This document shows, piece by piece, positions 19,046 to 52,958 of a stretch of DNA of 64,000 nucleotides. The notes below the pieces were generated by a model. The model saw nothing but the letters and a program-made list of their open reading frames with translations. It had not been told where the DNA came from and ran no database searches. The stretch spans positions 28,793 through 92,792 of the forward strand of contig JBFWWP010000020.1 of assembly GCA_050246115.1 (NCBI GenBank), written 5' to 3'. A program made the translations under genes and the position numbers. Origin of the DNA: Planctomycetota bacterium (lineage in GTDB: Bacteria; Planctomycetota; UBA8108; UBA1146; JAJFFE01). Each line of letters begins with the position of its first letter. Within the stretch, counting starts at the first letter, position 1.

Positions 19046-19282
19046 GTCCGACGATGCGATGGGCGTAGCGCTCGCGAGATCGTCTTCGGTTCGCACGAAG
19101 CGAAACGACACGCGTTGACGGGTCGTCGACGATGGCACGGCGGTGTCGCCCGCGCGCGTGCGAAGTGCGCCACGTCGAGGCTCGTTGAGCGAGCCCGCGC
19201 TGCAGGTCGCGAAGCACCCTTCTCCTGTCCGATGGACCGCGGCGGGACGCGATGCACATTATTGCGCAGAACCACCTTTTCG

Positions 19283-19312
19283 TTGCATTCTGGTGTATTC
19301 TGCGTTATGCTC
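19283..19312 (+). promoter_or_regulatory. Candidate sigma70-type promoter TTGCAT-N18-TATGCT upstream of the HNH endonuclease gene
   Basis: Locally AT-richer sequence ccttttcgTTGCATtctggtgtattctgcgtTATGCTcttg, a near-consensus -35/-10 pair in otherwise GC-rich DNA. Confidence 0.35.
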
Positions 19313-19331
19313 TTGTTCCTGCCCAAGTGCT

Positions 19332-19360
19332 CGAGAGGAGTATTCCCGAGAGGAGTATTC
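19332..19360 (+). repeat. Tandem duplication cgagaggagtattc x2; each copy contains a Shine-Dalgarno-like GAGGAG
   Basis: Read directly. The second copy ends 1 nt before the proposed TTG start of the HNH gene (the spacer between GAGGAG and TTG is the 6-nt tattct). Confidence 0.7.
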
Positions 19361-19361
19361 T

Positions 19362-21092
19362 TTGTCTTACTCGAAGACCTTCCATCCGCGCCCATTCTCG
19401 GCCCACTTCGTGGGAGCTTCCGTGTTCGCTCGCGTTCGTGATCGGGGTGCTGCGACAGGGAACATCCGCGCTACGTTCTCTACGCAAGGGGGTGGCCAGG
19501 ACTTCGTCGTGGGTGAGAGTTCGGTCGCCTACGGAGCGGGCACCAAGGGGACGAGGAAGGGTCGCGAGGAGATCGCGCCCGTGGACGATCACGGCGTGAT
19601 CGAAGCAAGCACGGTGCACGAGCGGCTTCGGTCGTTGCTGGCGCTCGGGAACGAGGTGCGGCTCGAGTTTCTCGATGCGCTGCGGAGCTTGCACGATGAC
19701 CGACTGTGCTTCGAGCTCGGGTACTCGAGCTTCCACCAGTACTGCGATCGGGAGCTGGGGATCGCGAAGAGTACGGCTTATGAGTATCTGAAGGTCGGGA
19801 AGGCCTTGGCGGACTTGCCGGGGCTGCGGGGGATGTTCGCGAGTGGCGACCTGTCGTGGGATCAGGTGCGGCACGCGGCGCGGGTGGCTACGCCGGAGAC
19901 CGAGACGGCCTGGATCGAGCTGGCGTGGGAACTTCCCGTCAGCGAGTTCTTGGCCGAAGTTCGCGATGCTCTTCGCAACGGGCGAGCGGCACCGCGCGAG
20001 AAGCGAAACGGACTGCCGAATCTCGTCACCAAGCTGTCGATCGAGGTGACGCTCGAGGAGAAGGAGCGTGTGCGGACAGCGTTCGCGCTCGTGGCAGAGG
20101 CGCTTGGAGAGGAGGCGCTCGGGGAGAACGAGCCGCAGGGCGACGGCGACGCGCGCCCGACGCTGCTCCGTTGGGCGGATGCGGTTCTCGCTGGGAGGAT
20201 CCCGCTCTCAGCAGGACCGGCAGGTGACGCGGGACGGCGAACTCGACCCGCGCAGGCCATCGTCTATCACTCGTGCCGCGAGTGTCGCACCGCCTCGGTC
20301 CAGACCGAGGACGGTCTCGTGAGCGTGGAGCCCGATCGCATCGCCAGACTGTCTGCGGTCGCGGACACCGTGGACATCTCGACCGGGGCCGTCCCATCCG
20401 GGGGCAACTCAATCGAAGACACATCGACGAGAGTCATCTCAACCGGAGTCAACTCCATCGGCGACGCCTCGTCAGAGAAGGGATCGCCAACCGACAAGGA
20501 AGCCGACACCCCACTTCCCGATGGGCTTCTGGATGCGCCCAACTCGGCTGCGCTATCGCGCAAGGTGATCCTGCGCGACGGGGCACGGTGCGCGAACCCG
20601 GCTTGCGGGTCGAAACGCCGACTGCACGCGCATCACATCATCTTCCGGGCTCGCGGAGGCCGCACTGTGCTCGCGAACGAGGTCGCGGTGTGTGATCGTT
20701 GCCACGCACTGATCCACGCGGATCGGCTCGAGGTGTCGGGCACTATCGACGGTGGCCTCGAGTGGAGACCTCGGCCCTGGAGCGACGCGACGCGGCTTCG
20801 ATGCGCTCGTGAGCTCGGTGAGCGGTTGCGGTCGCTGGTGGGCGAAGTCCATGGACCGGGCCAAGTGGGCCGCGAGCCGTCCCGGTCTTCCATGCTCCGC
20901 GACCCGGTGTCCACGAACGCAGACACGCAGCGCGTCGAAGCTCTCGCGCAGGGTCTGATTCGCCTCGGTTACCGGAAGTCGGAAGCGGTCGCGAGAATCG
21001 AGCACGCACTCGCGCGGCTCGCCGAGGGGGGCTCCAGCACGGACGACGGGGAGGTCCTGCGCCTCGCCATCTGCGTGGGGTCTGGCGCATGA
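19362..21092 (+). CDS. DUF222-type HNH endonuclease (13E12-repeat-family-like), with a C-terminal RuvA-domain-III-like tail
   Basis: ELGYSSFHQYCDRELGIAKSTAYEYLKVGKAL is DUF222-like. CANPACGSKRRLHAHHIIFRARGGRTVLANEVAVCDRCHALIH is an HNH motif. The start is uncertain: the track ORF begins at 19143 but runs through the tandem repeat, so an in-frame TTG at 19362 preceded by GAGGAG is proposed. Confidence 0.6.
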   Translation: MSYSKTFHPRPFSAHFVGASVFARVRDRGAATGNIRATFSTQGGGQDFVVGESSVAYGAGTKGTRKGREEIAPVDDHGVIEASTVHERLRSLLALGNEVRLEFLDALRSLHDDRLCFELGYSSFHQYCDRELGIAKSTAYEYLKVGKALADLPGLRGMFASGDLSWDQVRHAARVATPETETAWIELAWELPVSEFLAEVRDALRNGRAAPREKRNGLPNLVTKLSIEVTLEEKERVRTAFALVAEALGEEALGENEPQGDGDARPTLLRWADAVLAGRIPLSAGPAGDAGRRTRPAQAIVYHSCRECRTASVQTEDGLVSVEPDRIARLSAVADTVDISTGAVPSGGNSIEDTSTRVISTGVNSIGDASSEKGSPTDKEADTPLPDGLLDAPNSAALSRKVILRDGARCANPACGSKRRLHAHHIIFRARGGRTVLANEVAVCDRCHALIHADRLEVSGTIDGGLEWRPRPWSDATRLRCARELGERLRSLVGEVHGPGQVGREPSRSSMLRDPVSTNADTQRVEALAQGLIRLGYRKSEAVARIEHALARLAEGGSSTDDGEVLRLAICVGSGA

Positions 21093-21530: not shown

Positions 21531-23183
21531 TCAAGGGCAGAATGACGTCCGGCACGGAAGGTCCTCGCCGAGTGGAGCGGCGTCGCACTCGGGGAACGGC
21601 GGTTGGCCCGGGGGGCTTCCCATGAAGAACAGGTACTGCAGCAGACACACGGCGTCGGTCATGCTGACCGCGCCGTCGACGTCGAAGTCGTTCTGCGCCG
21701 CGCAAGGCGAGGTCTCCCCGCTGTACAGGTACTCGAGAATCGCCATGGCGTCGGCCATGTCCACCAGACCGCTCCGGTTCGCGTCGCCGCGCAGGTAGTG
21801 TCGCCGCGGGAGGTTCCCGGTGTGATAGAAACCTGCCTTATGGGCATCGTGGCCGATCATCCCCCACTCCACTCGTGGCACACCGGGGCCGGGGTTCTCG
21901 ACATCCCAAGCGTGCAGATTCCCCTGGTGACCGACGATGACCTCTAAGTCGTTGTCCCCATCGAGGTCCGCAATCGCGAGGGTACGCGGGGGGAATTGGG
22001 ACCATGACGGAAACACTTTGGGCCAACCGGGGAGTTCGTTCATGGACAGGTCGAGGAGATGGATTTGCTCCAGGTTGCCAGCGACGTTTGTACTCCAGGC
22101 GGCGATCTCGGCGAGGCCATCACCGTTGAAGTCAGCGACCGCGACGGCCATATAGAACGCGTACTCGTCTGTGGACGATGTCTGTGCCATGATGCCCACG
22201 CCCAGCTTCCACACCGTGATCTCGAACCCAGCCGAAACGACCTCGAGGCTACCGTCCGAGTCCACGTCGGCTATCGCCAACGGTACATTGGGCGACGCAT
22301 CTGCGAAATAGGAACCGGCAAATGCGGTCCCGTCGCGATTCATGACGAAGACGTGCGCGAAGTTTCCGACGATTTCGGAAGTCAGGTCTCCGTCCAAGTC
22401 CGCAATAGCAGGATTCGCAGCGATCTCCGGGCCCCCCAACCCCGGCGGAAACGCCGGCCACCCGGGTCGCGTGGTCCCATCGCCGTTCAACACAAACACC
22501 GGACCGGGAACCCAGGTCCCTTGATATCCCGAGAAGCTCACGACGATCTCATTCGTACCATCGAACTCTAAGTCACCGACCGCGACGCCCACGATTCCGT
22601 AGATCGGCGAGAGTTCCTCGAACACTCGCGGAAAGCCTGGGTGGTACTGACCATCGCCGCCGTAAACGAACAAGATTCCGTGGAGTTGAGAGCCGTCGCC
22701 AACGAGAATCTCCAAGTCGCCGTCGTTGTCGATGTCACCCAGACAAAGCTGACGGACGGCAGACCCGGGCGCGTCTACCTCCACGGGCCAGCCTGGCTTG
22801 AGCTGGCCATCACAGGTCACCGCGTAGACCGTCTTGTCCGTCGACCGGCGCCCCTCGAACACCACGTCGAGTTCGCCGTCACCGTCGATGTCGCCCACCA
22901 GGGGGGGAAGGTATGCTCCCCCTATCTCCTGCGGCGACGTGGGAAGAACGAACGGCCAGCCGGGCAGGACGTTACCTTGTCCATCGACCGCGACGATGTT
23001 GCCACCCCTCGAGACCACGATGTCGGGGAGTCCGTTGCCCGAGAGATCGGCAACCAACAGCTTGTTGAAGGGCCCGGAGGTGGTCGCTAGCGGGAATCCC
23101 GTCTGGGGATCCGACGCAAGGAGGCCGTGCACGGAGAGGCTGGCCGCTGAGACCGCGGCCAGCAGAGTCGCTCGAACGCTCAT
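21531..23183 (-). CDS. Secreted FG-GAP/VCBS-repeat beta-propeller protein with a C-terminal tandem dockerin-like module
   Basis: Signal peptide MSVRATLLAAVSAASLSVHG. Many GDxDGDGxxD/ADxDGD repeats (FG-GAP-like). The C-terminus RGDANRSGLVDMADAMAILEYLYSG...NDFDVDGAVSMTDAVCLLQYLFFMG is two dockerin type-I-like calcium loops plus helices, followed by a Cys-rich tail ending FCP. Confidence 0.7.
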   Translation of the reverse strand: MSVRATLLAAVSAASLSVHGLLASDPQTGFPLATTSGPFNKLLVADLSGNGLPDIVVSRGGNIVAVDGQGNVLPGWPFVLPTSPQEIGGAYLPPLVGDIDGDGELDVVFEGRRSTDKTVYAVTCDGQLKPGWPVEVDAPGSAVRQLCLGDIDNDGDLEILVGDGSQLHGILFVYGGDGQYHPGFPRVFEELSPIYGIVGVAVGDLEFDGTNEIVVSFSGYQGTWVPGPVFVLNGDGTTRPGWPAFPPGLGGPEIAANPAIADLDGDLTSEIVGNFAHVFVMNRDGTAFAGSYFADASPNVPLAIADVDSDGSLEVVSAGFEITVWKLGVGIMAQTSSTDEYAFYMAVAVADFNGDGLAEIAAWSTNVAGNLEQIHLLDLSMNELPGWPKVFPSWSQFPPRTLAIADLDGDNDLEVIVGHQGNLHAWDVENPGPGVPRVEWGMIGHDAHKAGFYHTGNLPRRHYLRGDANRSGLVDMADAMAILEYLYSGETSPCAAQNDFDVDGAVSMTDAVCLLQYLFFMGSPPGQPPFPECDAAPLGEDLPCRTSFCP

Positions 23184-24022
23184 GGGCACCCCGCCCCGGC
23201 GGCCACACAGTCGAGCGCGTCCGCGGTTGGATCGAATCCACAAATCGTCGGTCCAGGGGCTGGAGGCGGTGAGCCCGGCGGAGAACCGAACAGAAAACCG
23301 AGCAGGTACACCGAGTCCGCGATGTTGATGTCGCCAAGGTCGTTCGTGTCGGCAGCGTCGCGACACAGGAACGTGCATGGCGGAGCCGGTGGGACGGGAG
23401 GAAACAACACGCAGAGAATGAACACCACGTCCGCAACGTTGACGGCTGCGTCCAGATTCGCATCGCCTCTCTTGAAGTCACCGTCAAGCCGCTCGTCCGC
23501 GCCGCGGTCTACAACGCCCGATTGGACCCGCGGCTCTCGGTCGACGTCCAAGTCGAAAGGCGCAAACACTGCCCAGCCGGGGGCCGGATTCTGGCCGGTG
23601 TTCGCAGCGGTCGAGCTTGCCCCGAGGTGTGGGTTGTCGTCAGGAGGCACAGGATAGAAGATGCTCGCGGTTGGGGGGTTCGGATTGTTCGTGGCCACCC
23701 CACCGAACAGGTCGAGGCTAAGGGGACACCCTCCGGGAAATTCGTCCTTGGCGTGCGAGTACTGAAGAGGTGTCGTCACTGGACCCGTCCCGGTGCAGCA
23801 GGCCAGCCACTCCGTGAACGAAAGTGCAAACGGGCTGAGATTGTTCGACACTACGTTGTTGGTGGCGCGCCACTGCACATAGCCGGACGCCTCAGAGTGA
23901 AACGCGCCCACTATGTGACTGCGCGTATGTGTGTGACTGCGCGATTCGATCGCCTTCGGCTCTGTGAGCTTAGCGACCTCAAAGCCGACTTCGCAAGCTC
24001 CGTCTCTTGGAATCCGTTTCAT
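23180..24022 (-). CDS. Hypothetical protein with the same C-terminal tandem dockerin-like module
   Basis: 280 aa. C-terminus KRGDANLDAAVNVADVVFILCVLF...CRDAADTNDLGDINIADSVYLLGFLFGSPPGSPPPAPGPTICGFDPTADALDCVAAGAGCP. Overlaps the FG-GAP gene start by 4 nt (ATGA). No obvious signal peptide from the annotated start, so the start is uncertain. Confidence 0.5.
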   Translation of the reverse strand: MKRIPRDGACEVGFEVAKLTEPKAIESRSHTHTRSHIVGAFHSEASGYVQWRATNNVVSNNLSPFALSFTEWLACCTGTGPVTTPLQYSHAKDEFPGGCPLSLDLFGGVATNNPNPPTASIFYPVPPDDNPHLGASSTAANTGQNPAPGWAVFAPFDLDVDREPRVQSGVVDRGADERLDGDFKRGDANLDAAVNVADVVFILCVLFPPVPPAPPCTFLCRDAADTNDLGDINIADSVYLLGFLFGSPPGSPPPAPGPTICGFDPTADALDCVAAGAGCP

Positions 24023-38180: not shown

Positions 38181-40157
38181 CTATGGACACGCGTTGAACG
38201 AAGCACAATCCAAAGCGTCACCGGACGTCGGATCGACGCCACAGCCAGGGTGTGGCGGTGACGGCGGCACGGTCGTCGCGCCAAAGAGAGCACTCAGGAC
38301 GCAGATCGCGTCGGCGATGTTCAGCGTCCCGTCGTCGTTGCAATCGCAAGCATCCTCGCACGCAAGGGTGATCGGCATGCCCGACGGGAACAGGAAGCTC
38401 AGTAGGGAGATCGCGTCGGCGATGTTGAAGCTCGCGTCGGCGTTGCAGTTCCCGCGAACGAACTGTTGCGCTCCGGTGCCAGGCACGAACACCACGTCGA
38501 CGAGTTCCTCCATGAGCGTTCCGAAGTGCGGCGCCTGGATGTCCTTGAGCGGCGTGGTTCCGTCGCCCTCGAAGACCCAGCCCTTGTCGTCGACGATCGA
38601 CCGCCACGCGCGACGATGGATCAAGCGCGCACGGAACGTCACGTCTCCACCGACGGCGGGACCCGAGAAAGTGTAGTTCGTGGTATCGGTTGCGCCGGCG
38701 GGGATCCGCGTGTTGAAGCGCTCGGCGACGGCATCCGTGAACGGGATCGGGCCGTTGCCGCCGGCGTCCTCGATCAAGCGCCCGTAGATCTTACCCGGCA
38801 AGCCCGCCCAGTGGCCGGTCGCAGGATCTCCCACGCCGGCCTCGGGTCGAAGCACTTGCGAGGTCGCGTGGGCGAGGGCCTGACCATTGCCGACTTGGAT
38901 CGCTTCGACGATCAGGATCACGTTGCGCAGGCTGATCCCCGTGGGGACGTCGTGACCCGCCTTGTCATTCACGATACTGACCTGGACTTGGGCATCGGTT
39001 CCGACCACGTTCACCGACATCGTCATCGTCACCGCGTTCTCGAGGAACGTCGGCGTGGTGCCATGGATCTCGTGGGAGCGGATCTGACCGGCGATTCGCG
39101 GCACCGGGACGATGATACAGCCGTCGTTGGTTGCCGCCGGCATGTGGCAGTCCGCGCAGGTGGCGTAGGTGGGCGACATCGGGTTGCCGAAAGCGGATGC
39201 TTGCCACTCCGAGTAGGTCGTCTGCCCCGGGAAGCTGCCCGCCTCCGTGAAGTCACCGTCCTGGTCCGGGTCGCTGTTGTACTCATGGCATACGGAGCAG
39301 GTCTCGAACCGGATGTCGGGATTGTAGGACGGGTACATGGCGAGGGGATCGATGAAGTCCACGTCTCCGAGCGGACCGTACATCACTTGTTGGGTATTGA
39401 CCCCAGCCTCCACCGGACGGGTGACGATCACAGCGCCCGGGTAGAACCCGGTGGCCTTGGGCTCCAAGACATCCGCGGTCTTGTGACACATCTCGCACGA
39501 GACGCTCGCGAGGGAGTCGGTGGTCGGAGTGTTGATGTCCTGGAGTGCGGTAAAGGGAGCGTTCAGCCACTTCTGCGGCTGGTGGCACGACGCACACTCG
39601 CCCTCCGGGAAGGTCGCTGCGTGAATCGAGTCTTGCGTGTAGACGAAGCCGCCCATGCCGCCCGGCGTGCCGGTACCGTTGTACAAGTCATAGACCCATT
39701 GGTTGATCCCCGTGATGCTCATCGGGGTCGGGTTGGCCGAGTTGATATCGCCGTACTGAGCGAACTGATCGGCGTGGCAGAAGCCGCACTGAAGGTTCGC
39801 TCGCCACGTGTAGTTCGGGTCGTTGGCGAAGGTGTTGACGGGAGTCAGGTTGAAGTCCTGCGTGGCCGGTGTGGTCACGGTGTTCGGGACCAAGACCGGA
39901 GCTCCGTTGCTGTGGTAGTAACCGCGCTGCGCCGCCACCACCACGAGGTCCACACCCGACACGCTCAAGGTGTAGGCACCGGCGGCGTCTGTCGTGGTGC
40001 GCTGATCGGTTCCTTGGAGCGTCACGATGGCGCCCTGGATCGGCAACAAGGTGTTGGCGTCTCGCACGACACCGGACACCTGGCCCCATGAGGGGCTGGC
40101 CAGCATGGCGAGGCACGCGAGTGTGCCCAAAACGATCGAAGAATGGCGAACGAGCAT
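38181..40157 (-). CDS. Secreted pentaheme c-type cytochrome with an N-terminal CarbopepD_reg_2-like domain and a C-terminal tandem dockerin-like module
   Basis: Signal peptide. Five CxxCH motifs (CGFCH, CASCH, CEMCH, CSVCH, CADCH). C-terminus RGNCNADASFNIADAISLLSFLF...CDCNDDGTLNIADAICVLSALFG...PGCGVDPTSGDALDCASFNACP. Confidence 0.75.
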   Translation of the reverse strand: MLVRHSSIVLGTLACLAMLASPSWGQVSGVVRDANTLLPIQGAIVTLQGTDQRTTTDAAGAYTLSVSGVDLVVVAAQRGYYHSNGAPVLVPNTVTTPATQDFNLTPVNTFANDPNYTWRANLQCGFCHADQFAQYGDINSANPTPMSITGINQWVYDLYNGTGTPGGMGGFVYTQDSIHAATFPEGECASCHQPQKWLNAPFTALQDINTPTTDSLASVSCEMCHKTADVLEPKATGFYPGAVIVTRPVEAGVNTQQVMYGPLGDVDFIDPLAMYPSYNPDIRFETCSVCHEYNSDPDQDGDFTEAGSFPGQTTYSEWQASAFGNPMSPTYATCADCHMPAATNDGCIIVPVPRIAGQIRSHEIHGTTPTFLENAVTMTMSVNVVGTDAQVQVSIVNDKAGHDVPTGISLRNVILIVEAIQVGNGQALAHATSQVLRPEAGVGDPATGHWAGLPGKIYGRLIEDAGGNGPIPFTDAVAERFNTRIPAGATDTTNYTFSGPAVGGDVTFRARLIHRRAWRSIVDDKGWVFEGDGTTPLKDIQAPHFGTLMEELVDVVFVPGTGAQQFVRGNCNADASFNIADAISLLSFLFPSGMPITLACEDACDCNDDGTLNIADAICVLSALFGATTVPPSPPHPGCGVDPTSGDALDCASFNACP

Positions 40158-44859: not shown

Positions 44860-45178
44860 GTCGGGACTCATCCATGAAGCTCTTCGCTGCGAGAGTCCTG
44901 AAATCGCGCTCTGGCCATGACTCGGGGCGCGAGTTCGACCAGAGCCGGCGTGGTTCGGGTGTTCGACGTTCGAGTTCGGTCTCGACGGAGCAACCGGGAC
45001 CGGGGTTGCGCGTGCACGGCCGAGCGGGCGTGGCCGATTCGCTGTCCGCGACCGGCTCGACCACCCGATGTCGGCGCGCACTCGTGGACTTTCGCAGCCG
45101 TGTTCGATTCAATGTTGAACAGTGGCAGGGCGGCAGGCTGGTGAGCCTCCCGCGCGCATCCCAGAAAGCAGCGCAACG

Positions 45179-45877
45179 ATGAAATTGAACGACTCCAACC
45201 GACCCATGCGGGTCCTCGAGAAGGTGCTCCAGGGAGGCCTGGGCAGCGGGAACCTCGGGGTCGTGATGTCCCGGCGCGGCACCGGCAAGATGGCCGTCCT
45301 GACGTCCATTGCGCTCGACAACGCCATGGATGGCCGCGGCACCCTCCACGTCGCCATCGGCGAGTCCGTCGCCGACGTGCGCGCGTACCACGACGAAGTG
45401 CTCGCGGAGATCTTGTCCAGCATCGGGGTGACGAACAAGCTCGAGGTCACTTCGGGCATCGAACGTAGCAAGCAGATCTACACCTTCCGCGACGGGAAGT
45501 TCACTTTGCGGCGACTTCGAGAGACCCTCGACTTCCTCCGCGGTGGGCCCGAGTTTGCGCCGACCCTCATCGAACTCCAAGGGTGGCCCGACTTCGATAC
45601 CGTGACCGCGGACGAACTTGGCGAACTCCGGAAAATCGCCCGCGACTACCAGAGCGAGATCTGGTTGGCCGCCCACACGCACCGTGACGGCGACGTGAGT
45701 GGCTCGGGAGTTCCGGAGAGCGTCGCGCGCCACTTGGACCAAATCGAAGTTCTGATCGCGCTCGACCCCGTCGGCGAACACGTCAAGATCAACGTCGTCA
45801 AGGCCCACGGTCGCCCGGTTCCGGGCAACGTCCACCTCGAGTTGGACCCCAACACGATGCTGATCCGCTGGCGGTAG
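45179..45877 (+). CDS. KaiC/RecA-fold domain protein with a degenerate Walker A
   Basis: LEKVLQGGLGSGNLGVVMSRRGTGKMAVL resembles the KaiC/RadA N-terminal region, but the P-loop is GTGKM (Lys followed by Met rather than Ser/Thr). Confidence 0.45.
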   Translation: MKLNDSNRPMRVLEKVLQGGLGSGNLGVVMSRRGTGKMAVLTSIALDNAMDGRGTLHVAIGESVADVRAYHDEVLAEILSSIGVTNKLEVTSGIERSKQIYTFRDGKFTLRRLRETLDFLRGGPEFAPTLIELQGWPDFDTVTADELGELRKIARDYQSEIWLAAHTHRDGDVSGSGVPESVARHLDQIEVLIALDPVGEHVKINVVKAHGRPVPGNVHLELDPNTMLIRWR

Positions 45878-47714: not shown

Positions 47715-47862
47715 CCCAAGATGGAACCTGGCCCAAGGCCGTAGAGGAACGGTCGGCGACGGCCCCCCCGGGCTCCCGGCCCCCGAAGGCGGGGAGCCGG
47801 TTGGAGGCGTCGCGGATCCTGCGACCTCGCCGCCGCGATTCGCCGACCGGAGACCTTAGAGA

Positions 47863-48050
47863 CCTTAGGAGTCGCCCAAGAATAACTTCACCCTCTTGCT
47901 CGTCGCTTCGGGCCATCTTCGACCGATCCGAAAACCTCGTAATCCTCACCGGAACTAAGGCTACGCCTCCGGTTTCGAGCTTTCCGGATCGGCCGAATCT
48001 GACCCAAATCGACGGCAAGATGTCGAAGTTATCGTGGGCGACTCCTTAGG
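47863..48050 (+). mobile_element. MITE-like element, copy A (188 bp, about 27-bp terminal inverted repeats CCTTAGGAGTCGCCCAAGAATAACTTC / GAAGTTATCGTGGGCGACTCCTTAGG)
   Basis: Three near-identical copies in the window (this one, plus 50369-50557 and 51264-51451 in the opposite orientation). Termini are inverted repeats, and internal imperfect inverted repeats (gaccgatccgaaaacc...ggtttcgagctttccggatcggcc) make most of the element a long hairpin. Confidence 0.75.
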
Positions 48051-50085
48051 GCGCCTGACAGGCTCCCAACGAATCCAACGTGGGGTCGAGGCCGGCGCCG
48101 GGGAACGGATACGGCGGCGTGGCACCGTTCGTGAAGAGGTAACTGAGCGCGTAGATCGCGTCTCCGATGTTGACGCTGCTGTCGTCGTTCACGTCCGCCG
48201 CGTCGGGGCAGGTGGGCGCTGCACCGCCCGCGAACAGGAAGGTCAAGATCGCAATGGCGTCCGCGATGTCGATCGAGCCGGTGCGGTTCGCGTCTCCGCG
48301 CAGGAACTCGACCTGCCCAGGAGCGACGATCGTCACGCGCCCGTGCAGCGGGAACGGTGCGATGCTCGGACCCAACGACGGGGAGAAGATCGTGTTGAGC
48401 GGCGGCGAACCGAGACCATCGACGAAGCGGATCTCGGTCGTCGTCCCGACGGCCAAGCCGGGAACGACATCGTACTCCAGTCCGGCCAGCATTTGGTTTG
48501 CGCTCGGCGGGAACGTGCGGAAGTCGAACGGGGACGTGGTATCCAGAATGATCCCGGCCACGATGTTCGAATCGGCTCCGCTCCCGCCGTACTCGATGTC
48601 GACGAACTCGGGCGCGAGGGACTGGGTGATCGATCCCTGCAACGTGAGTTCGCTCAAGGCCAAAATGTTGGCGTCGTAGCCGATACCGACCTGGAACCCT
48701 TGGATCGGCTCGGGGTGCGAGGCGAAGATCGGGTGAATGACCCCCACCTCGCCGGCCACCAGCTGAATGCGCGGCAGTTTGATCGAGTTGGCCGGGATGC
48801 TTCCGCTCACATACGAAGCGCGGACTCGGTTACCGGTCCCGCCGGGTCCGGTGACCGTCAAGGTGACCGTGAACGGTCCCGGCTCGACGTACAAGTGCGT
48901 GGGTGCCAACTCGGTCGACGTGCTGCCGTCACCAAAGTCCCAGAGGACAGTGTCGAACACGCTGGCGATGCTGGGCGTAAAAGCGACGGAGAGCGGAAGC
49001 ATTCCGGAAGTCGGCGAACCCACGAAATCGACCGTTGGGGGCGGTACCTCGTTCATGTAGAAGACTGCCCCGAACGCCACGAACGCGACATGGATGTAGT
49101 CCAAGGAGTCCATACTGACGCTCGGCTGCGCCGCAACGCTCAGGAACGGGGTCAGGCTCGATACGGTCCAAACAGCGCCGGCATCCAACTCGTGGAGCCG
49201 AATCTGCCCCCCTTTTGCGAACACCAACGCGGCGTGCCCGCTCTGCCCGGCGGCAATCTGCGGGTTACCCGCGGGCCCAGCGTCGCGCAACTCGGGCGCG
49301 GTGTACACACCGGCTGCCGAGCGGCGAACGTAGCGAATCGCGGAGCCGTCGAGAAAGGCCACGTGCACCGAGCCGGCACTGTCCACGTCGAGGTCGAGCG
49401 TGCCCGTCCCCGCCGTCAGGGTGGCGATGGTTTCTTCGGCGCCGACCGTAGTCCCATCGAAGGTACGTCCGAACAGAGTTCCCGACCGCACATAGCCGAT
49501 GAACGAGACGCCACCCCCGAGAGCCGCCAACGCCGGGCTCGCGCCACTGCCGATCAGGACCGTGGCGCCACCGTTGCGAACTGCGAGGATCTCGGCCGGA
49601 GCGGCGCCGACTTGCTGCTCCCACACGATGTCGATCGCGCCCTGCTCATTCACTTGGACCACGGGGTTACGGTCATCGATGCCATCATTCGTCGTGATCG
49701 CCTGGGCCGAGCTGAATTGTCCACCGTTGTTGTTGCGGTAGAGCACTTCCAAACCCATGGCACCGGGTTCGACCGACAACTCGTCATACACCACGTGCAG
49801 CAGAAACGAAGATCCGACCGCGAGCCGACCACGACCGATGGGCTGAGGGGTCGCCGCGACCGGCAGCTGCTGGCCGAACCCGAAGAGAGTACTGGCGAGG
49901 AAAAGGTCGTCGCCGTCGCCGAACAGGATGGCGACGGTGTCGTTGGTACCGACCTGCAGGTCCGGCGCGGAGAAACCACCGCTCGAAGAGGCTTGAATGG
50001 GTTGGTTGAAACTCTGAGCCGACAACTCGGTCGCGCCGCACACCAACAACACGACGCACACCCACCGGCAGGAAATTCCCGACAT
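48046..50085 (-). CDS. Secreted multidomain protein with PKD, cohesin-like and C-terminal tandem dockerin-like domains
   Basis: Signal peptide MSGISCRWVCVVLLVCGATELSAQS. PKD domain (VLWDFGDGSTSTELAPTHLYVEPGPFTVTLTVTGPGG). Cohesin-like segment (IQLVAGEVGVIHPIFASHPEPIQGFQVGIGYDANILALSELTLQGS ... QMLAGLEYDVVPGLAVGTTTEIRFVDG). C-terminus RGDANRTGSIDIADAIAILTFLF...DVNDDSSVNIGDAIYALSYLF. The stop codon lies inside the MITE copy A inverted repeat. Confidence 0.7.
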   Translation of the reverse strand: MSGISCRWVCVVLLVCGATELSAQSFNQPIQASSSGGFSAPDLQVGTNDTVAILFGDGDDLFLASTLFGFGQQLPVAATPQPIGRGRLAVGSSFLLHVVYDELSVEPGAMGLEVLYRNNNGGQFSSAQAITTNDGIDDRNPVVQVNEQGAIDIVWEQQVGAAPAEILAVRNGGATVLIGSGASPALAALGGGVSFIGYVRSGTLFGRTFDGTTVGAEETIATLTAGTGTLDLDVDSAGSVHVAFLDGSAIRYVRRSAAGVYTAPELRDAGPAGNPQIAAGQSGHAALVFAKGGQIRLHELDAGAVWTVSSLTPFLSVAAQPSVSMDSLDYIHVAFVAFGAVFYMNEVPPPTVDFVGSPTSGMLPLSVAFTPSIASVFDTVLWDFGDGSTSTELAPTHLYVEPGPFTVTLTVTGPGGTGNRVRASYVSGSIPANSIKLPRIQLVAGEVGVIHPIFASHPEPIQGFQVGIGYDANILALSELTLQGSITQSLAPEFVDIEYGGSGADSNIVAGIILDTTSPFDFRTFPPSANQMLAGLEYDVVPGLAVGTTTEIRFVDGLGSPPLNTIFSPSLGPSIAPFPLHGRVTIVAPGQVEFLRGDANRTGSIDIADAIAILTFLFAGGAAPTCPDAADVNDDSSVNIGDAIYALSYLFTNGATPPYPFPGAGLDPTLDSLGACQAP

Positions 50086-50368
50086 GCGGCGCTCCCTCGC
50101 GCGAGTAGTACTCGCGAATAACCGCTGACCCAGAATTCAGAACGCGACGTTAAGAAAGCGAGCCGGAGGCCTACCCGTCCCAGGCGAACGGACGCCGCTC
50201 GGCGGCGCACGGAACCGGGGCCTCGATCCAGAACCAAACTGGCTCCGATGAAACCAGGAAAGCCAGAATTTCCAAGCTCAATCGGGCGCTCGTCGACCCT
50301 GAGTTGCGATAGATCAAGTCCGGGCGACGTAGAGGCCCGCGTTCCCGTGCTCAACTCGTCGAACGGGC

Positions 50369-50557
50369 CCTTAGGAGTCGCCCAAGAATGACTTCGACAT
50401 CTTGCCGTCGATTTGGGTCAGATTTGGCCGATCCGGAAAGCTCGAAACCGGAGGCGTAGCCTTAGTTCCGGTGAGGATTTCGAGGTTTTCGGATCGGTCG
50501 AAGATGGCCCGAAGCGACGAGCAAGAGGGTGAAGCTATTCTTGGGCGACTCCTTAGG
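50369..50557 (-). mobile_element. MITE-like element, copy B (189 bp; reverse orientation relative to copy A)
   Basis: Near-identical reverse complement of copy A, read directly. Followed by a partial extra agtcgccc. Confidence 0.75.
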
Positions 50558-50599
50558 AGTCGCCCGCCCTCGAGAGCCCTTGGGAAGAACCTAGGTCCT

Positions 50600-51181
50600 T
50601 CAGGTCCCGGTGCGCGCGCGGCCCAGCAACTCGGTGGTATCGGGGACCGAATCGGCGTGGTCTCCGCGCTCGAGGCGGCGGACGAGGATCGCCTCCGCTT
50701 CGCGGCTCGCTCCGCCTGCGACGAGCGCGCGCGCGAACTCGAGTTCGATCTCGGCGACGTTCCGGTCAGCGACTCCCCAGGCGCCCCGCGCGAGATCGTA
50801 GGCACGGCGCAACGATTCGGCGGCAGCGCCCCAGTCGCCGCGGACGAGGAGGCGTCGACCCAGTGAAGCCCTGGCAGCGACCTCGGACGCCACGTCGGGA
50901 AAGCCCTGGTGATCGAATCCGTGGACCCGAGCGCGCTCGAAGTCTGCGTCCGAGAGCGCGTCGAAGACCGGGTCCTCCGACTCCGCGAGTCCCTGCATCT
51001 GGGCGAAGCGCAGCTGCTCTTGCGCCGCCCGAAACTGGGCGCGCTCCGCTTCGACGTCGGCATTCCTACGAGCCGACGAGAGCCACGCGACCCCAGTCAA
51101 GGATGCAAGCAAACAGAAACCGCACACGAACAGAGCGATGAGAGCGCTCGCTGGCGGTCCAGTCCTGACATCGTCGGCCAC
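50600..51181 (-). CDS. Hypothetical membrane-anchored protein
   Basis: 193 aa with an N-terminal TM helix (LIALFVCGFCLLASLTGVAWL) then a helical/TPR-like region. Flanked on both sides by MITE copies B and C. Confidence 0.35.
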   Translation of the reverse strand: MADDVRTGPPASALIALFVCGFCLLASLTGVAWLSSARRNADVEAERAQFRAAQEQLRFAQMQGLAESEDPVFDALSDADFERARVHGFDHQGFPDVASEVAARASLGRRLLVRGDWGAAAESLRRAYDLARGAWGVADRNVAEIELEFARALVAGGASREAEAILVRRLERGDHADSVPDTTELLGRARTGT

Positions 51182-51263
51182 TGCCTCACCTCCTTCTCCC
51201 CTTGGGTTCCACGGAAACGGTCGTGAACGCCCCCCCGGCTCCGCCAGCGCCCGAGTGCGAAGC

Positions 51264-51451
51264 TCTTAGGAGTCGCCCAAGAATGACTTCGACATCTTGC
51301 CGTCGATTTGGGTCAGATTCGGCCGATCCGGAAAGCTCGGAACCGGAGGCGTAGCCTTAGTTCCGGTGAGGATTTCGAGGTTTTCGGATCGGTCGAAGAT
51401 GGCCCGAAGCGACGAGCAAGAGGGTGAAGTTATTCTTGGGCGACTCCTTAG
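51264..51451 (-). mobile_element. MITE-like element, copy C (188 bp; same orientation as copy B)
   Basis: Near-identical to copy B, read directly. Its end is 1 nt from the stop codon of the downstream lipoprotein gene. Confidence 0.75.
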
Positions 51452-51452
51452 A

Positions 51453-52958
51453 TCAAGGCCCCCTGGCGGGCCCTGCCTCGGGCAACAGCGGAAAGTCGAA
51501 GTCGAAGAGCATCGTGTCGCGCGACGGCTCCGGGCCATCCGGGCCGTCGATGCCGTAAGTGGCGCGCAATCGCAGCGAGAAACTACCGGTCACCTGTAGA
51601 ACCGTCGTTCCGTCTTCGCCGACGATGAGTTCGAAGAACGCTGTCGCGCTCAGCGGAACGGGCGTATCCCGCAGGACGAATTGCCCGTCGAGCGTAGCAC
51701 GGGCTTGCACGCCGAACTGCAGCGGGTCGTTCGTGAACGTTCCCTCGAACCAGGCCCGCGGGAAGCGTTCGGCGTCGAGCAGCGTCGGACCGCGGATATG
51801 CTGATCCAGATCGGGGTGCCCCATGGTGACCGACGAGACCGGCACGTCGAAGCGACACCAGCCGGTTCGCAGCTCGGGCGACCGAAACTCGAGCGTGCCC
51901 GACGCCCCCTTGGCGGCCCCGGAGTAATGATCGAGCGGCGGCGCAAAACGAAACAGTACCCGCGGGTCATCATTCCTCTCCGCCTCCACCGTTCGCCATA
52001 CCGCCCCAACCGTGGAGTCTGGATCGGGCGTCGCTGCTCCCGAAACCGGGCGGGCCAGCGCGGGTAGCGGCAAACCGATCTCTTCCCAAGTCTTCAGCGG
52101 GACGTCGGCAGGGACGGGGTCGAAGGCGTCGCCGATGTCCGAGTTCGCGATCTGCCGCACCAGTTCCTCTTCGAGCAGCCGCGCGGCACTCGCGAGCACC
52201 CGCTCCCGCTCTTCCCAGCGCCCCCGCAGCGGATCGCCGCGATTGCTGAACACCGGCGTGTGGCAGTGGAACTGAGAGAACAGCTCGGTCGTGACGAACA
52301 GCTCTCCTTCGGGAGAACGATACGGATGGAAATCCATGTAGAACGCTCGGTCGGAGCGGCCGAGACGCGCGGGCTCGGAGCGACGAAAGCGGCTGAAGGC
52401 GCCCTCGATCGCGCGACGTGCAGACTGAGCGAACTCGAAGCGGACATCGTCGCCGCTCCCGGCGACCGAGGTCGCCCCCGTGAGCGGCGTGATCTTGATC
52501 GGCACCACGACCTGCATGCGACCGACTCGCCATACGGGTGCGTCGGGTAGTTCGAGAAACTGGTCGCTTTGGGGCACCCGCCGGAAGGTGCGTACGAAGT
52601 TCTCGAGGCGGTCGACGTCGAGGTAGCGGCCTTGATAGACCGCTCGACCACGGGCGTTGACGAACGCGATCAGCGGTGTGAGCGCGACCTCGGCCGGAGC
52701 GCCCTCGGTGACCGAGATCACGCGCATAGGGATCCCCGCGTAGGCCGCGAAGAGCTCGATCTCCAAGAGGTCGTTCGCCTCGAAGCGCCGCGCCAGATCC
52801 GAGCGCTGCGGCTGAACGAACACGACGAGGGTCTCCGGCGGGACGGCCTCGGCCGCACCCGCGCGCCCCGCTCCATCGTCGTCGCGGGTCTCCCGTTGAC
52901 AACCCCATACCAACAGCAGCAACCCCAGGGCCACCGCTCGGTTCGTCTTCGCGCGCAA
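51453..52958 (-). CDS. Hypothetical lipoprotein with a C-terminal YceI-like domain
   Basis: Proposed TTG start (complement of 52956-52958) preceded by GAGGAGG-N5, giving MRAKTNRAVALGLLLLVWGC (lipobox). C-terminal region TLEFRSPELRTGW...ATLDGQFVLRDTPVPLSATAFFEL is YceI-like. The track start at 53141 adds an Arg-rich unconserved extension. Confidence 0.55.
   Translation of the reverse strand: MRAKTNRAVALGLLLLVWGCQRETRDDDGAGRAGAAEAVPPETLVVFVQPQRSDLARRFEANDLLEIELFAAYAGIPMRVISVTEGAPAEVALTPLIAFVNARGRAVYQGRYLDVDRLENFVRTFRRVPQSDQFLELPDAPVWRVGRMQVVVPIKITPLTGATSVAGSGDDVRFEFAQSARRAIEGAFSRFRRSEPARLGRSDRAFYMDFHPYRSPEGELFVTTELFSQFHCHTPVFSNRGDPLRGRWEERERVLASAARLLEEELVRQIANSDIGDAFDPVPADVPLKTWEEIGLPLPALARPVSGAATPDPDSTVGAVWRTVEAERNDDPRVLFRFAPPLDHYSGAAKGASGTLEFRSPELRTGWCRFDVPVSSVTMGHPDLDQHIRGPTLLDAERFPRAWFEGTFTNDPLQFGVQARATLDGQFVLRDTPVPLSATAFFELIVGEDGTTVLQVTGSFSLRLRATYGIDGPDGPEPSRDTMLFDFDFPLLPEAGPARGP

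Follow-up and report, generated by a model that had tools for sequence, protein, structure and literature searches.

A Pfam-silent cohesin joined to a dockerin in a propeller-bearing protein of a planctomycete

What might a protein that combines a cohesin with a dockerin do in a planctomycete? Cohesin and dockerin are the plug-and-socket modules that build cellulosomes. Few known connectors between proteins are as tight as a cohesin-dockerin pair, and such pairs are widely used in synthetic biology. To our knowledge, cohesin-dockerin biology outside cellulolytic Firmicutes is almost entirely hypothetical; non-cellulosomal cohesins and dockerins were reportedly surveyed by Peer et al. in 2009. 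The gene considered here lies on the minus strand of a 64,000-nucleotide stretch of DNA (the whole stretch analysed, hereafter the window), where one ATG-to-stop reading frame in the ORF list spans exactly 48046..50085, with 679 codons and a TAA stop at 48046-48048. Its GC3 of 0.81 is like that of the real genes of the window. The 679-aa product is identical to a GenBank entry (P0001, 'MAG: PKD domain-containing protein [Planctomycetota bacterium]'), and PKD is the only domain that Pfam and GenBank annotate in it.

The protein has a modular architecture, in which a signal peptide, a sialidase-like β-propeller, a PKD domain, a diverged type-I-like cohesin, a linker of ~4 residues, a two-repeat dockerin and a Cys-containing extension follow one another. 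A sequence-only reading of this locus had placed a PKD domain, a cohesin-like domain and a dockerin-like tail in one protein, and Pfam, profiles and predicted fold bear this out. The Sec-type signal peptide (aa 1-23, MSGISCRWVCVVLLVCGATELSA, followed by Gln24; 50017..50085, minus strand) was recognised by eye from Arg7, a hydrophobic core and small residues preceding Gln24; it is the least conserved segment, with a mean identity of 23%, and has a pLDDT <50 in the AF2 model. The PKD domain (aa 349-431; 48793..49041, minus strand) matches PF18911 (46.5 bits, E 3.9e-12) and PF00801 (38.2 bits, E 1.4e-9) over aa 350-421, and its WDFGDG motif is invariant among orthologues. Full-length orthologues, seven in number, are 33-73% identical to the 679-aa protein. 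Among orthologues, the dockerin with its extension is under the strongest purifying selection (mean identity 59-62%), and the cohesin (42%) is more conserved than the propeller (34%).

How secure is the cohesin? The segment in question (aa 432-589; 48319..48792, minus strand) comprises nine main β-strands with an insert between β8 and β9, and the peptide quoted by the sequence-only reading, IQLVAGEVGVIHPIFASHPEPIQGFQVGIGYDANILALSELTLQGS, corresponds to aa 440-485 of the protein. PF00963 (gathering score 24.1 bits) gave no match when sought in the whole protein at E<=10 or in the isolated domain at E<=1, so that by gathering score the window sequence falls outside that family, and direct Pfam and NCBIfam scans of the protein found no cohesin. 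The sequence-only reading had proposed the PF00963 search as a check and had named the lack of a cohesin HMM hit as grounds for abandoning the assignment, and, taken literally, this is the outcome. With the curated HMMs giving no match, it is family profiles and predicted structure that carry the assignment. A profile of eight orthologues reached PDB cohesins at E 0.25-0.34 only, which is not significant, and the match turned significant once 46 distant domains joined it. The 54-sequence family profile matched the PDB sequences 3l8q_A (1.2e-4), 4uyp_A (2.3e-4) and 5lxv_A (3.4e-4), with cohesins accounting for 17 of its 19 PDB matches, and hhalign aligned the family to three bona fide PF00963 domains with 91% probability (E 1e-6). 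PF00963 itself matches 12 of the 54 homologous domains of the family (best E 4.4e-6), and a relative with four copies (P0121) scores 26.3 bits. The AF2 model of the segment reached a pLDDT of 97 and forms a nine-stranded jelly-roll β-sandwich, distinguishable from generic Ig/FN3 folds; searched with Foldseek, its top 50 matches were all cohesins (best E 3.3e-7). Structure prediction, another of the checks proposed, returned a cohesin fold, and the type I pattern that had been read from raw sequence, where Pfam sees only PKD, agrees with a fold nearest type I cohesins. On these profiles and models, aa 432-589 is a cohesin homologous to experimentally defined cohesins, and the resemblance lies far beyond chance.

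The domain belongs to a family of 1033 clusters at 50% identity that is essentially restricted to Planctomycetota and of which most members escape Pfam. A word-index homology search with the isolated 161-aa domain gave no match, the protein itself included, one with the full-length protein was dominated by PKD-repeat proteins, and the family was recovered by an exhaustive search of representatives. Its proteins carry one to five cohesin copies in tandem. Among the best 150 family representatives, a dockerin accompanies the cohesin in 142 and stands at the extreme C-terminus in 140, and the dockerin begins 0-6 residues past the last cohesin strand. For scaffoldins, it is unusual that cohesin and dockerin are fused so near-obligately and almost directly; this would fit a cohesin fold that acts as the structural partner of its dockerin. 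One gene cluster (L005) has a scaffoldin-type arrangement, in which a dockerin-only gene is followed by genes for three cohesins plus dockerin, two plus dockerin, again two plus dockerin, and one plus dockerin. Within the family, conservation is strongest in β3 (GF), in a PPFDGR loop that joins β6 to β7 and in a GLGxPPxxNxF insert that separates β8 from β9, and is not clearly focused on strands 8-3-6-5. This loop-centred conservation implies that the binding surface of these cohesins may differ from the classical 8-3-6-5 one.

The dockerin core (aa 594-653; 48127..48306, minus strand) consists of two F-hand repeats, each a Ca2+ loop followed by a helix. Loop 1, D598-D609 (DANRTGSIDIAD), reads D598-A-N-R-T-G-S-I-D-I-A-D609, and loop 2, D631-D642 (DVNDDSSVNIGD), reads D631-V-N-D-D-S-S-V-N-I-G-D642. 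Both match the regular expression for dockerin loops and repeat the 12-residue EF-hand-like pattern of D or N at positions 1, 3, 5, 9 and 12, with Thr at position 5 of loop 1, which makes them putative Ca2+ loops. The helices were placed at 607-618 and 640-651 by the full-length AF2 model, at low confidence (dockerin pLDDT <50). Dockerin_1 (PF00404) scores 19.4 bits (E 0.0012) on aa 597-643, under its gathering score of 22.9 bits, and homologous tails exceed that cut-off (P0124, 24.9 bits; P0126, 23.0 bits; L009, 31.2 bits). A profile of eight orthologous tails matched 23 PDB chains, all of them dockerins, the best being 2y3n_B (4.2e-5), 4uyp_B (9.9e-5) and 1daq_A (4e-4). The conserved extension that closes the protein (aa 654-679, GATPPYPFPGAGLDPTLDSLGACQAP; 48049..48126, minus strand) is the most conserved segment, with 62% mean identity and the invariant Cys676 near its end. 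Residues invariant in eight orthologues are P657, Y659, P660, F661, P662, G665, D667, P668, D671, L673 and C676, together with C626 of the inter-repeat linker. Cys626 and Cys676 are the sole cysteines of the mature protein and are likely to form a disulfide.

If the cohesin were to receive dockerins, which ones might they be? Three further proteins of the window, a cytochrome among them, had been proposed to carry dockerins, and all three are real, with 60.8-83.8 bits in the tail HMM. One is a secreted cytochrome with a signal peptide and five CXXCH motifs (gene 38181..40157), in which Pfam finds MtrC/MtrF domain II/IV and CarboxypepD_reg; its tail at 38202..38471 (minus strand) scores 83.8 bits (E 3.8e-25) over profile positions 2-88 and makes it a candidate partner. 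The tail of a roughly 280-aa protein (gene 23180..24022; tail 23201..23476, minus strand, from the tail HMM and tail alignment) scores 74.2 bits (E 3.7e-22), and that of an FG-GAP β-propeller protein (gene 21531..about 23183; tail 21549..21800, minus strand, from the tail HMM) 60.8 bits (E 5.7e-18), the latter protein also exceeding the Dockerin_1 cut-off (25.1 bits) and matching FG-GAP_3 at 111 bits. All four window tails share the C-terminal extension. The positions that we take to govern type I dockerin recognition are 10/11, 17/18 and 22 of each repeat; these are alike in both repeats of the target tail and resemble one another across the four window tails (at 10/11: IA/IG, IA/IA, VA/IA and MA/MT). 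Such likeness is compatible with a specificity common to the tails and with dual-mode binding. A second cohesin of this family was sought in the window and not found, and with four tails to one cohesin, dockerins are in excess of cohesins there, as they are in cellulosomes.

The tail is found at the end of many further proteins that have no cohesin; in related MAGs, a small cargo census drawn from their loci lists among these β-helix, lamin-tail, CotH, NHL-propeller and C10-peptidase proteins; we count this diverse non-carbohydrate cargo in favour of a network that assembles in trans. Nearly all matches of a homology search with the tail profile were short contig-end fragments, and a related-locus scan with alignment A1 was driven by PKD and dockerin motifs, most of its 80 loci being irrelevant PKD proteins.

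About half of the protein is taken up by a β-propeller with a sialidase-like fold and without a Pfam family (aa 24-348; 49042..50016, minus strand), identified by AF2 (pLDDT about 85-94, about 26 β-strands) and Foldseek. Among the best PDB matches were GH33 sialidases (1eut, E 4e-13), integrin α propellers and an archaeal S-layer protein with a YVTN propeller and PKD (1l0q, E 1e-11); at 11-14% identity, these matches denote similarity of fold only. A BNR or sialidase Pfam match was sought in the 679-aa protein and not found. Measured against the hallmarks of GH33 (a catalytic Arg triad, a nucleophilic Tyr/Glu pair and Asp-box repeats), the propeller does not qualify: R200 is its only Arg that is invariant in eight orthologues, which leaves the triad unconserved, and we rejected a catalytic sialidase for want of this triad and of a BNR match. 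Because the propeller occupies half of the protein, we regard the latter as a cargo-bearing cohesin-plus-dockerin type, like R. bromii Amy4, and not as a pure adaptor scaffoldin. The sequence-only reading, which had seen an adaptor scaffoldin of cellulosomal architecture, was right in joining a cohesin and a dockerin in one polypeptide and overlooked the propeller. The surroundings of the gene are not cellulosomal: no glycoside hydrolase or CBM family was found in the 21 window proteins scanned, the window neighbours of the gene are housekeeping genes, and neither dockerin-bearing carbohydrate-active cargo nor a cellulolytic setting was found there. An Rfam scan of the window gave no match. 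Inverted repeats of 170 nt, 97% identical, bracket the gene; a mobile cassette was nevertheless rejected, as the same housekeeping neighbourhood, without the repeat, surrounds the gene in genomes whose orthologues are 43-52% identical. The gene is vertically inherited within this conserved neighbourhood.

How might these modules act together? We consider it fairly probable that the protein is exported and takes part, through cohesin-dockerin contacts in trans, in a non-cellulolytic network of the 'planctosome' type, in which the propeller is the head. We envision a scenario whereby, after Sec export, the 8-3-6-5 sheet of the cohesin would bind a dockerin tail of the same family in a Ca2+-dependent manner. 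A second copy of the protein might supply that dockerin, giving daisy chains like those of R. bromii Amy4, or it might be supplied by cargo that bears a tail, for example the five-haem cytochrome; the protein's own dockerin would plug into a free cohesin of multi-cohesin proteins whose genes lie elsewhere in such genomes. The outcome would be a chained protein network at the cell surface or outside the cell, with the propeller as a functional head for ligand or glycan binding, or possibly an enzyme, and the PKD domain as a spacer. The linker of ~4 residues argues for contacts between molecules and against the dockerin folding back onto its own cohesin. Conceivably, this arrangement extends across the phylum: a cohesin family of at least about 1000 clusters, with a disulfide-clasped dockerin on nearly each unit that would make the unit itself dockable, might polymerise into open-ended surface networks that tether multihaem cytochromes, proteases, β-helix and lamin-tail proteins, and so form a self-propagating 'planctosome' that includes a conduit for extracellular electron transfer, put together by cohesin-dockerin contacts. 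We hold this extension to be doubtful; were it true, it would account for the orphan dockerins whose excess in planctomycete genomes has long been noted.

Alternatively, the cohesin-fold module may receive no dockerin at all and be a fixed structural partner of the adjacent one, analogous to the X-module in the X-Doc dyads of types II and III. The tail would then bind a canonical cohesin elsewhere, an envelope component or a glycan, and the pair would serve mainly as a module for surface retention or sorting. The co-occurrence of about 95% and the start of the dockerin right after the last cohesin strand speak for this proposal, as does the position of the conserved residues in family-specific loops and not in the classical binding strands. 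The tail also resembles a sorting domain in standing nearly always at the extreme C-terminus with its conserved Cys-containing extension. Nor was an anchoring scaffoldin found among the tail-less family representatives: a dockerin-less, membrane- or wall-anchored cohesin protein was sought in these eight of the 150 without success, and four of them, upon inspection, look truncated or frameshifted, with three others stopping inside the cohesin domain. We judge a purely structural role of the cohesin unlikely.

A further possibility is that assembly is exclusively homotypic, such that the cohesin takes only its own dockerin type, head-to-tail chains or closed oligomers display the propeller, and the cytochrome and other cargo are not recruited. 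As a self-polymerising unit would demand, nearly all cohesin proteins of the family also carry a dockerin; experiments on R. bromii have shown that the Amy4 cohesin can take up the dockerin located on the same polypeptide and multimerise, and the short linker here disfavours intramolecular closure and favours contacts in trans. However, the tails of dockerin-only proteins score 61-84 bits with the HMM of the orthologue tails, have the same extension and are similar in their presumed recognition residues, so that discrimination against them is not evident, and proteins with up to five cohesins, clustered beside dockerin-only genes, suggest several partners. We therefore think an exclusively homotypic assembly quite improbable. 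That aa 432-589 are a generic Ig- or fibronectin-like spacer with a chance likeness to cohesins would agree with the missing PF00963 match and the insignificant eight-orthologue profile, but the searches by fold and by profile have already refuted it, and it seems to us barely credible.

Given the preferred reading of contacts in trans, the gene product probably links surface proteins in a non-cellulolytic bacterium. A large planctomycete cohesin family has been overlooked by standard annotation, in which Pfam and GenBank see only 'PKD'; its cohesin is nearly always fused to a distinctive Cys-containing dockerin, and dockerins of one type tag exoproteins of very different kinds, a multihaem cytochrome among them. 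Should the predicted binding prove real, the modules would provide a concrete, testable parts list for a planctomycete surface interactome and, for protein engineers, a cohesin-dockerin pair that is new and orthogonal. Otherwise, the cohesin fold would have been recruited as a module that supports a dockerin.

Non-cellulosomal cohesin-dockerin systems are already described in the 'planctosome', in ANME archaea and in R. bromii Amy4, and how does the present protein compare with these and with cellulosomes? From type I cellulosomal cohesins (A. cellulolyticus ScaC Coh3, 4uyp_A; C. thermocellum OlpA, 3ul4_A; CipA Coh2, 1ohz_A), the window cohesin differs in its identity of 13-22%, its lack of a PF00963 match, ~20 additional residues, its own PPFDGR and GLGxPPxxNxF loops and a Gram-negative planctomycete host without cellulolytic context. 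Adaptor scaffoldins such as A. cellulolyticus ScaB combine one or more cohesins with a dockerin (PMC11557425, PMC4959524). Like these, the window protein is secreted and unites a cohesin with a C-terminal dockerin, and relatives with two to five cohesins and one dockerin occur in gene clusters; unlike these, half of it is a functional-looking propeller, its cohesin-dockerin linker has only ~4 residues, and there is no sign here of two distinct cohesin/dockerin specificities or of an anchoring scaffoldin. In ANME archaea, scaffoldin-like proteins carry one dockerin and up to five cohesins, and the text consulted does not state a dockerin on cytochromes (PMC9012536), whereas the five-haem cytochrome of the window bears one. 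These archaeal systems, including the A. fulgidus cohesin 2xdh, belong to another domain of life and have no detectable close sequence relationship to the present family.

A further precedent is the 'planctosome' hypothesis, which proposes extracellular cohesin/dockerin complexes in the freshwater Planctomycetes Nemodlikiaceae, with an adaptor comprising a dockerin and a cohesin, and with participation of lamin-tail-domain proteins (Andrei et al., 2019, PMC6461901). Consistent with this, lamin-tail-domain proteins bear the present dockerin tail in related MAGs. In the 'planctosome' model, the modules can be detected with Pfam, the adaptor is of an N-terminal dockerin-HYR-cohesin type and the cargo consists of peptidases, whereas the present family is mostly Pfam-silent, has a C-terminal Cys-containing dockerin and is accompanied by cytochrome, FG-GAP and β-helix cargo; both the model and the network envisioned here are computational hypotheses only. 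An experimental parallel in design is Amy4 of the R. bromii amylosome, whose cohesin was shown to bind the dockerins of other proteins as well as its own (PMC4611034). Amy4 differs in being a Firmicute GH13 amylase with canonical, Pfam-detectable modules, and it has a known sortase-anchored partner, Sca2; both proteins are secreted and unite a single cohesin with a C-terminal dockerin and a catalytic or functional module.

By its sequence profiles and predicted models, the gene at window 48046..50085 on the minus strand encodes a secreted protein of modular build, whose cohesin and dockerin are both genuine. It is a single ORF (ATG start, 679 codons, TAA stop) with a GC3 of 0.81 and a codon bias in line with the real genes in the window, which has 65% GC. 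A database protein from assembly GCA_050250155.1, annotated simply as PKD domain-containing, is identical to its product, and seven full-length orthologues (33-73% identity) all stem from other uncultured Planctomycetota. Every structural statement on the protein refers to predicted models.

Is the middle segment truly a cohesin? The sequence-only reading, citing a peptide that corresponds to aa 440-485, had proposed so and had named a missing cohesin HMM match as grounds for abandoning the idea. PF00963 does not match the protein at all, and the profile built from just the eight orthologous segments finds cohesins in the PDB at no better than E 0.25-0.34. Since these results would count against the proposal on its own terms, we made a wider search. 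Exhaustive HMMER searching with the eight-orthologue profile gave 1033 cluster representatives at a cut-off of E<=1e-3, of which 100 also pass E<=1e-30. The profile of an alignment of 54 diverse copies of the segment (A3) has 19 PDB matches, 17 of which are cohesins (3l8q_A, E 1.2e-4; 4uyp_A, 2.3e-4, 119 positions aligned; 5lxv_A, 3.4e-4). PF00963 itself is matched by 12 of the 54 copies (best E 4.4e-6), a four-copy relative (P0121) exceeds its gathering score (26.3 vs 24.1 bits), and hhalign places the family with three true PF00963 domains of unrelated PKD proteins at 91% probability and E 1e-6. AlphaFold2 with A3 modelled aa 432-592 at pLDDT 97.0 and pTM 0.90, and the top 50 PDB matches of this model in Foldseek were cohesins without exception (best 5nrm_A, E 3.3e-7, TM 0.72/0.81). 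The assignment thus holds by family profile and predicted fold, but not by direct Pfam match. Compared with classical cohesins, the domain is ~20 residues longer, and the motifs that it conserves most strongly are peculiar to its family: PEF ahead of β5, D..PPFDGR..PPG between β6 and β7 and, between β8 and β9, GLGxPPxxNxF....G.S..P.

The dockerin-like tail proposed earlier is borne out as well. Pfam Dockerin_1 stays below its cut-off of 22.9 on the target (19.4 bits, E 0.0012); the profile of eight orthologous tails matches 23 PDB chains, every one a dockerin (best 2y3n_B, 4.2e-5; 4uyp_B, 9.9e-5; 1daq_A, 4e-4). Two 12-residue Ca2+ loops, D598-D609 (DANRTGSIDIAD) and D631-D642 (DVNDDSSVNIGD), are each followed by a helix, predicted at low confidence. 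Past the canonical ~60-residue dockerin lies a 26-residue extension, PPYPFPxxGLDPTxDxLxxC, the most conserved part of the whole protein. Only two cysteines are present once the signal peptide is removed, C626 in the linker between the repeats and C676, and all eight orthologues keep them; we infer from this that they form a disulfide clasp.

The N-terminal half adds to the earlier layout of PKD, cohesin and dockerin, which stands except that it did not mention a β-propeller at aa 24-348 (pLDDT about 85-94, about 26 predicted strands). Residues 1-23, as read from the sequence, look like a Sec signal, with Arg7, a hydrophobic core VCVVLLVCG and then LSA|Q; this segment is the least conserved of the protein (pLDDT <50). 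In the PDB, the propeller comes closest to GH33 sialidases (1eut, E 4e-13), to integrin α propellers and to 1l0q, the YVTN-propeller and PKD unit of an archaeal S-layer protein. No Pfam family matched aa 24-348, and only one arginine in it is invariant among the eight orthologues; we therefore dropped a sialidase identity and treat the propeller as a sialidase-like fold, with no activity assigned. The PKD domain (aa 349-431) is a clear Pfam match (PF18911, E 3.9e-12; PF00801, E 1.4e-9).

The wider family was surveyed in the best 150 of the 1033 representatives. There, proteins carry one cohesin copy in 57 cases, two in 50, three in 31, four in 11 and five in 1; the tail dockerin accompanies the cohesin in 142/150 and sits at the extreme C-terminus in 140/150. 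Among the eight dockerin-less representatives, four that were inspected look truncated or frameshifted and three others stop inside a cohesin domain. The gap from the last cohesin strand to the dockerin is 0-6 residues, some relatives are dockerin-cohesin-dockerin proteins (loci L006, L008, L027), and the propeller-PKD-cohesin-dockerin architecture is kept in many clusters ~680 aa long. Almost all cohesin- or tail-bearing loci are labelled Planctomycetota. At L005:82-8225 (JAPOLY010000008.1, MAG 'bacterium bin129'), five genes in a row on one strand have the tail dockerin, in the order dockerin-only (704 aa), 3xCoh+Doc, 2xCoh+Doc, 2xCoh+Doc and 1xCoh+Doc, a gene cluster of scaffoldin type that lies outside the cellulolytic Firmicutes. 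Another locus, L017, has six dockerin-tail genes in a row. The tail also ends lamin-tail, CotH, right-handed β-helix, NHL-propeller and C10 peptidase plus inhibitor I69 proteins on Planctomycetota MAG contigs (L014, L016, L009, L030), which indicates a broad, non-carbohydrate putative cargo repertoire.

Within the window, the tail HMM matches four proteins, the target (150.6 bits) and the three further dockerin proteins noticed before, all on the minus strand. One is a secreted 658-aa cytochrome (38181..40157, 83.8 bits) with an N-terminal CarboxypepD_reg domain, an MtrC/MtrF domain II/IV match, five CXXCH motifs and a Cys-rich dockerin tail; a dockerin tag on a multihaem cytochrome is unusual. 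The others are a ~280-aa protein of unassigned function (23180..24022, 74.2 bits) and an FG-GAP β-propeller protein (21531..about 23183, 60.8 bits), whose true start is probably Met66 of the ORF as listed, the first residue of a signal peptide. These two genes adjoin each other (21531-24022), next to a plus-strand 649-aa ORF (19143-21092) for which Pfam gives nothing but an HNH endonuclease motif at ~aa 488-526. The window holds one cohesin of the target's family, and a scan of 21 window proteins gave no canonical cohesin and no glycoside hydrolase. Housekeeping genes, some on each strand, surround the target (IspG, a YceI protein, aldehyde dehydrogenase, EF-G). Genomes with 52% and 43% identical orthologues keep this gene order, with the CarboxypepD_reg cytochrome again downstream; the target is thus a stable chromosomal gene, outside any operon with its presumed partners. 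In locus L085 a CarboxypepD_reg/cytochrome gene holds the syntenic position. Flanking this neighbourhood are two conserved ORFs without a Pfam family at 50600-51181 (193 aa) and 45122-45877 (251 aa), with counterparts of similar size (215 aa; 231-232 aa) at the same positions in L084 and L085.

A near-perfect palindromic element of ~190 nt occurs in three copies, at least 95% identical (47862-48050, 50368-50558, 51263-51453), each directly 3' of a minus-strand gene. Two inverted copies flank the target, whose TAA stop falls within the terminal repeat. The element folds as one long hairpin (ΔG -127.7 kcal/mol, z -12.5), has no Rfam match and was not found at the orthologous loci; in eight metagenome contigs only its ~35-nt terminal repeat recurs. 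Probably this is an intergenic element of MITE/REP-like kind, with a possible role in terminating transcription or stabilising mRNA.

How might the protein act? In its lineage, the same dockerin tags many exoproteins and the same cohesin forms tandem arrays. We envision, with moderate confidence in the scheme as a whole, that the target cohesin would bind family tails in trans and Ca2+-dependently, while its own tail would insert into the cohesin of another family member. The outcome would be an extracellular network, branched or in chains, on which the propeller is presented and in which cargo such as the cytochrome can be brought together. We favour this because dockerins outnumber cohesins, because the two repeats, and likewise the four window tails, are similar at the presumed recognition positions, and because conservation is higher in the dockerin and, less so, in the cohesin than in the propeller. 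A fold-back of the tail onto its own cohesin face is unlikely given the ~4-residue linker. Among systems studied by experiment, R. bromii Amy4 comes nearest: its cohesin binds not only the dockerin of Amy4 itself but also those of other proteins (PMC4611034). Alternatively, the cohesin fold may only prop the dockerin, like an X-module, leaving the tail to bind something else. Such a role would suit the near-obligate fusion, the centring of conservation on loops and the lack of an identified anchor, but it sits poorly with tandem cohesins and with the many tails on proteins without a cohesin, and we hold it to be unlikely. Purely homotypic chaining appears slightly less probable still. A generic Ig-like spacer is refuted by the fold and profile data and deserves hardly any credence.

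Cohesin/dockerin pairing outside cellulosomes is an established concept, exemplified by the A. fulgidus modules and the R. bromii amylosome. ANME archaea are described as having scaffoldin-like proteins in which a dockerin is combined with as many as five cohesins (PMC9012536), and the 'planctosome' hypothesis offers a Planctomycetes-specific precedent for cohesin/dockerin systems (PMC6461901). With non-cellulosomal systems and the 'planctosome' already described, the finding is not categorically new. Set against those accounts, four features are new: a large, mostly Pfam-silent cohesin lineage, its almost invariable fusion to an extended, Cys-containing dockerin, a conserved propeller-PKD-cohesin-dockerin architecture, and the presence of the same dockerin on a multihaem cytochrome.
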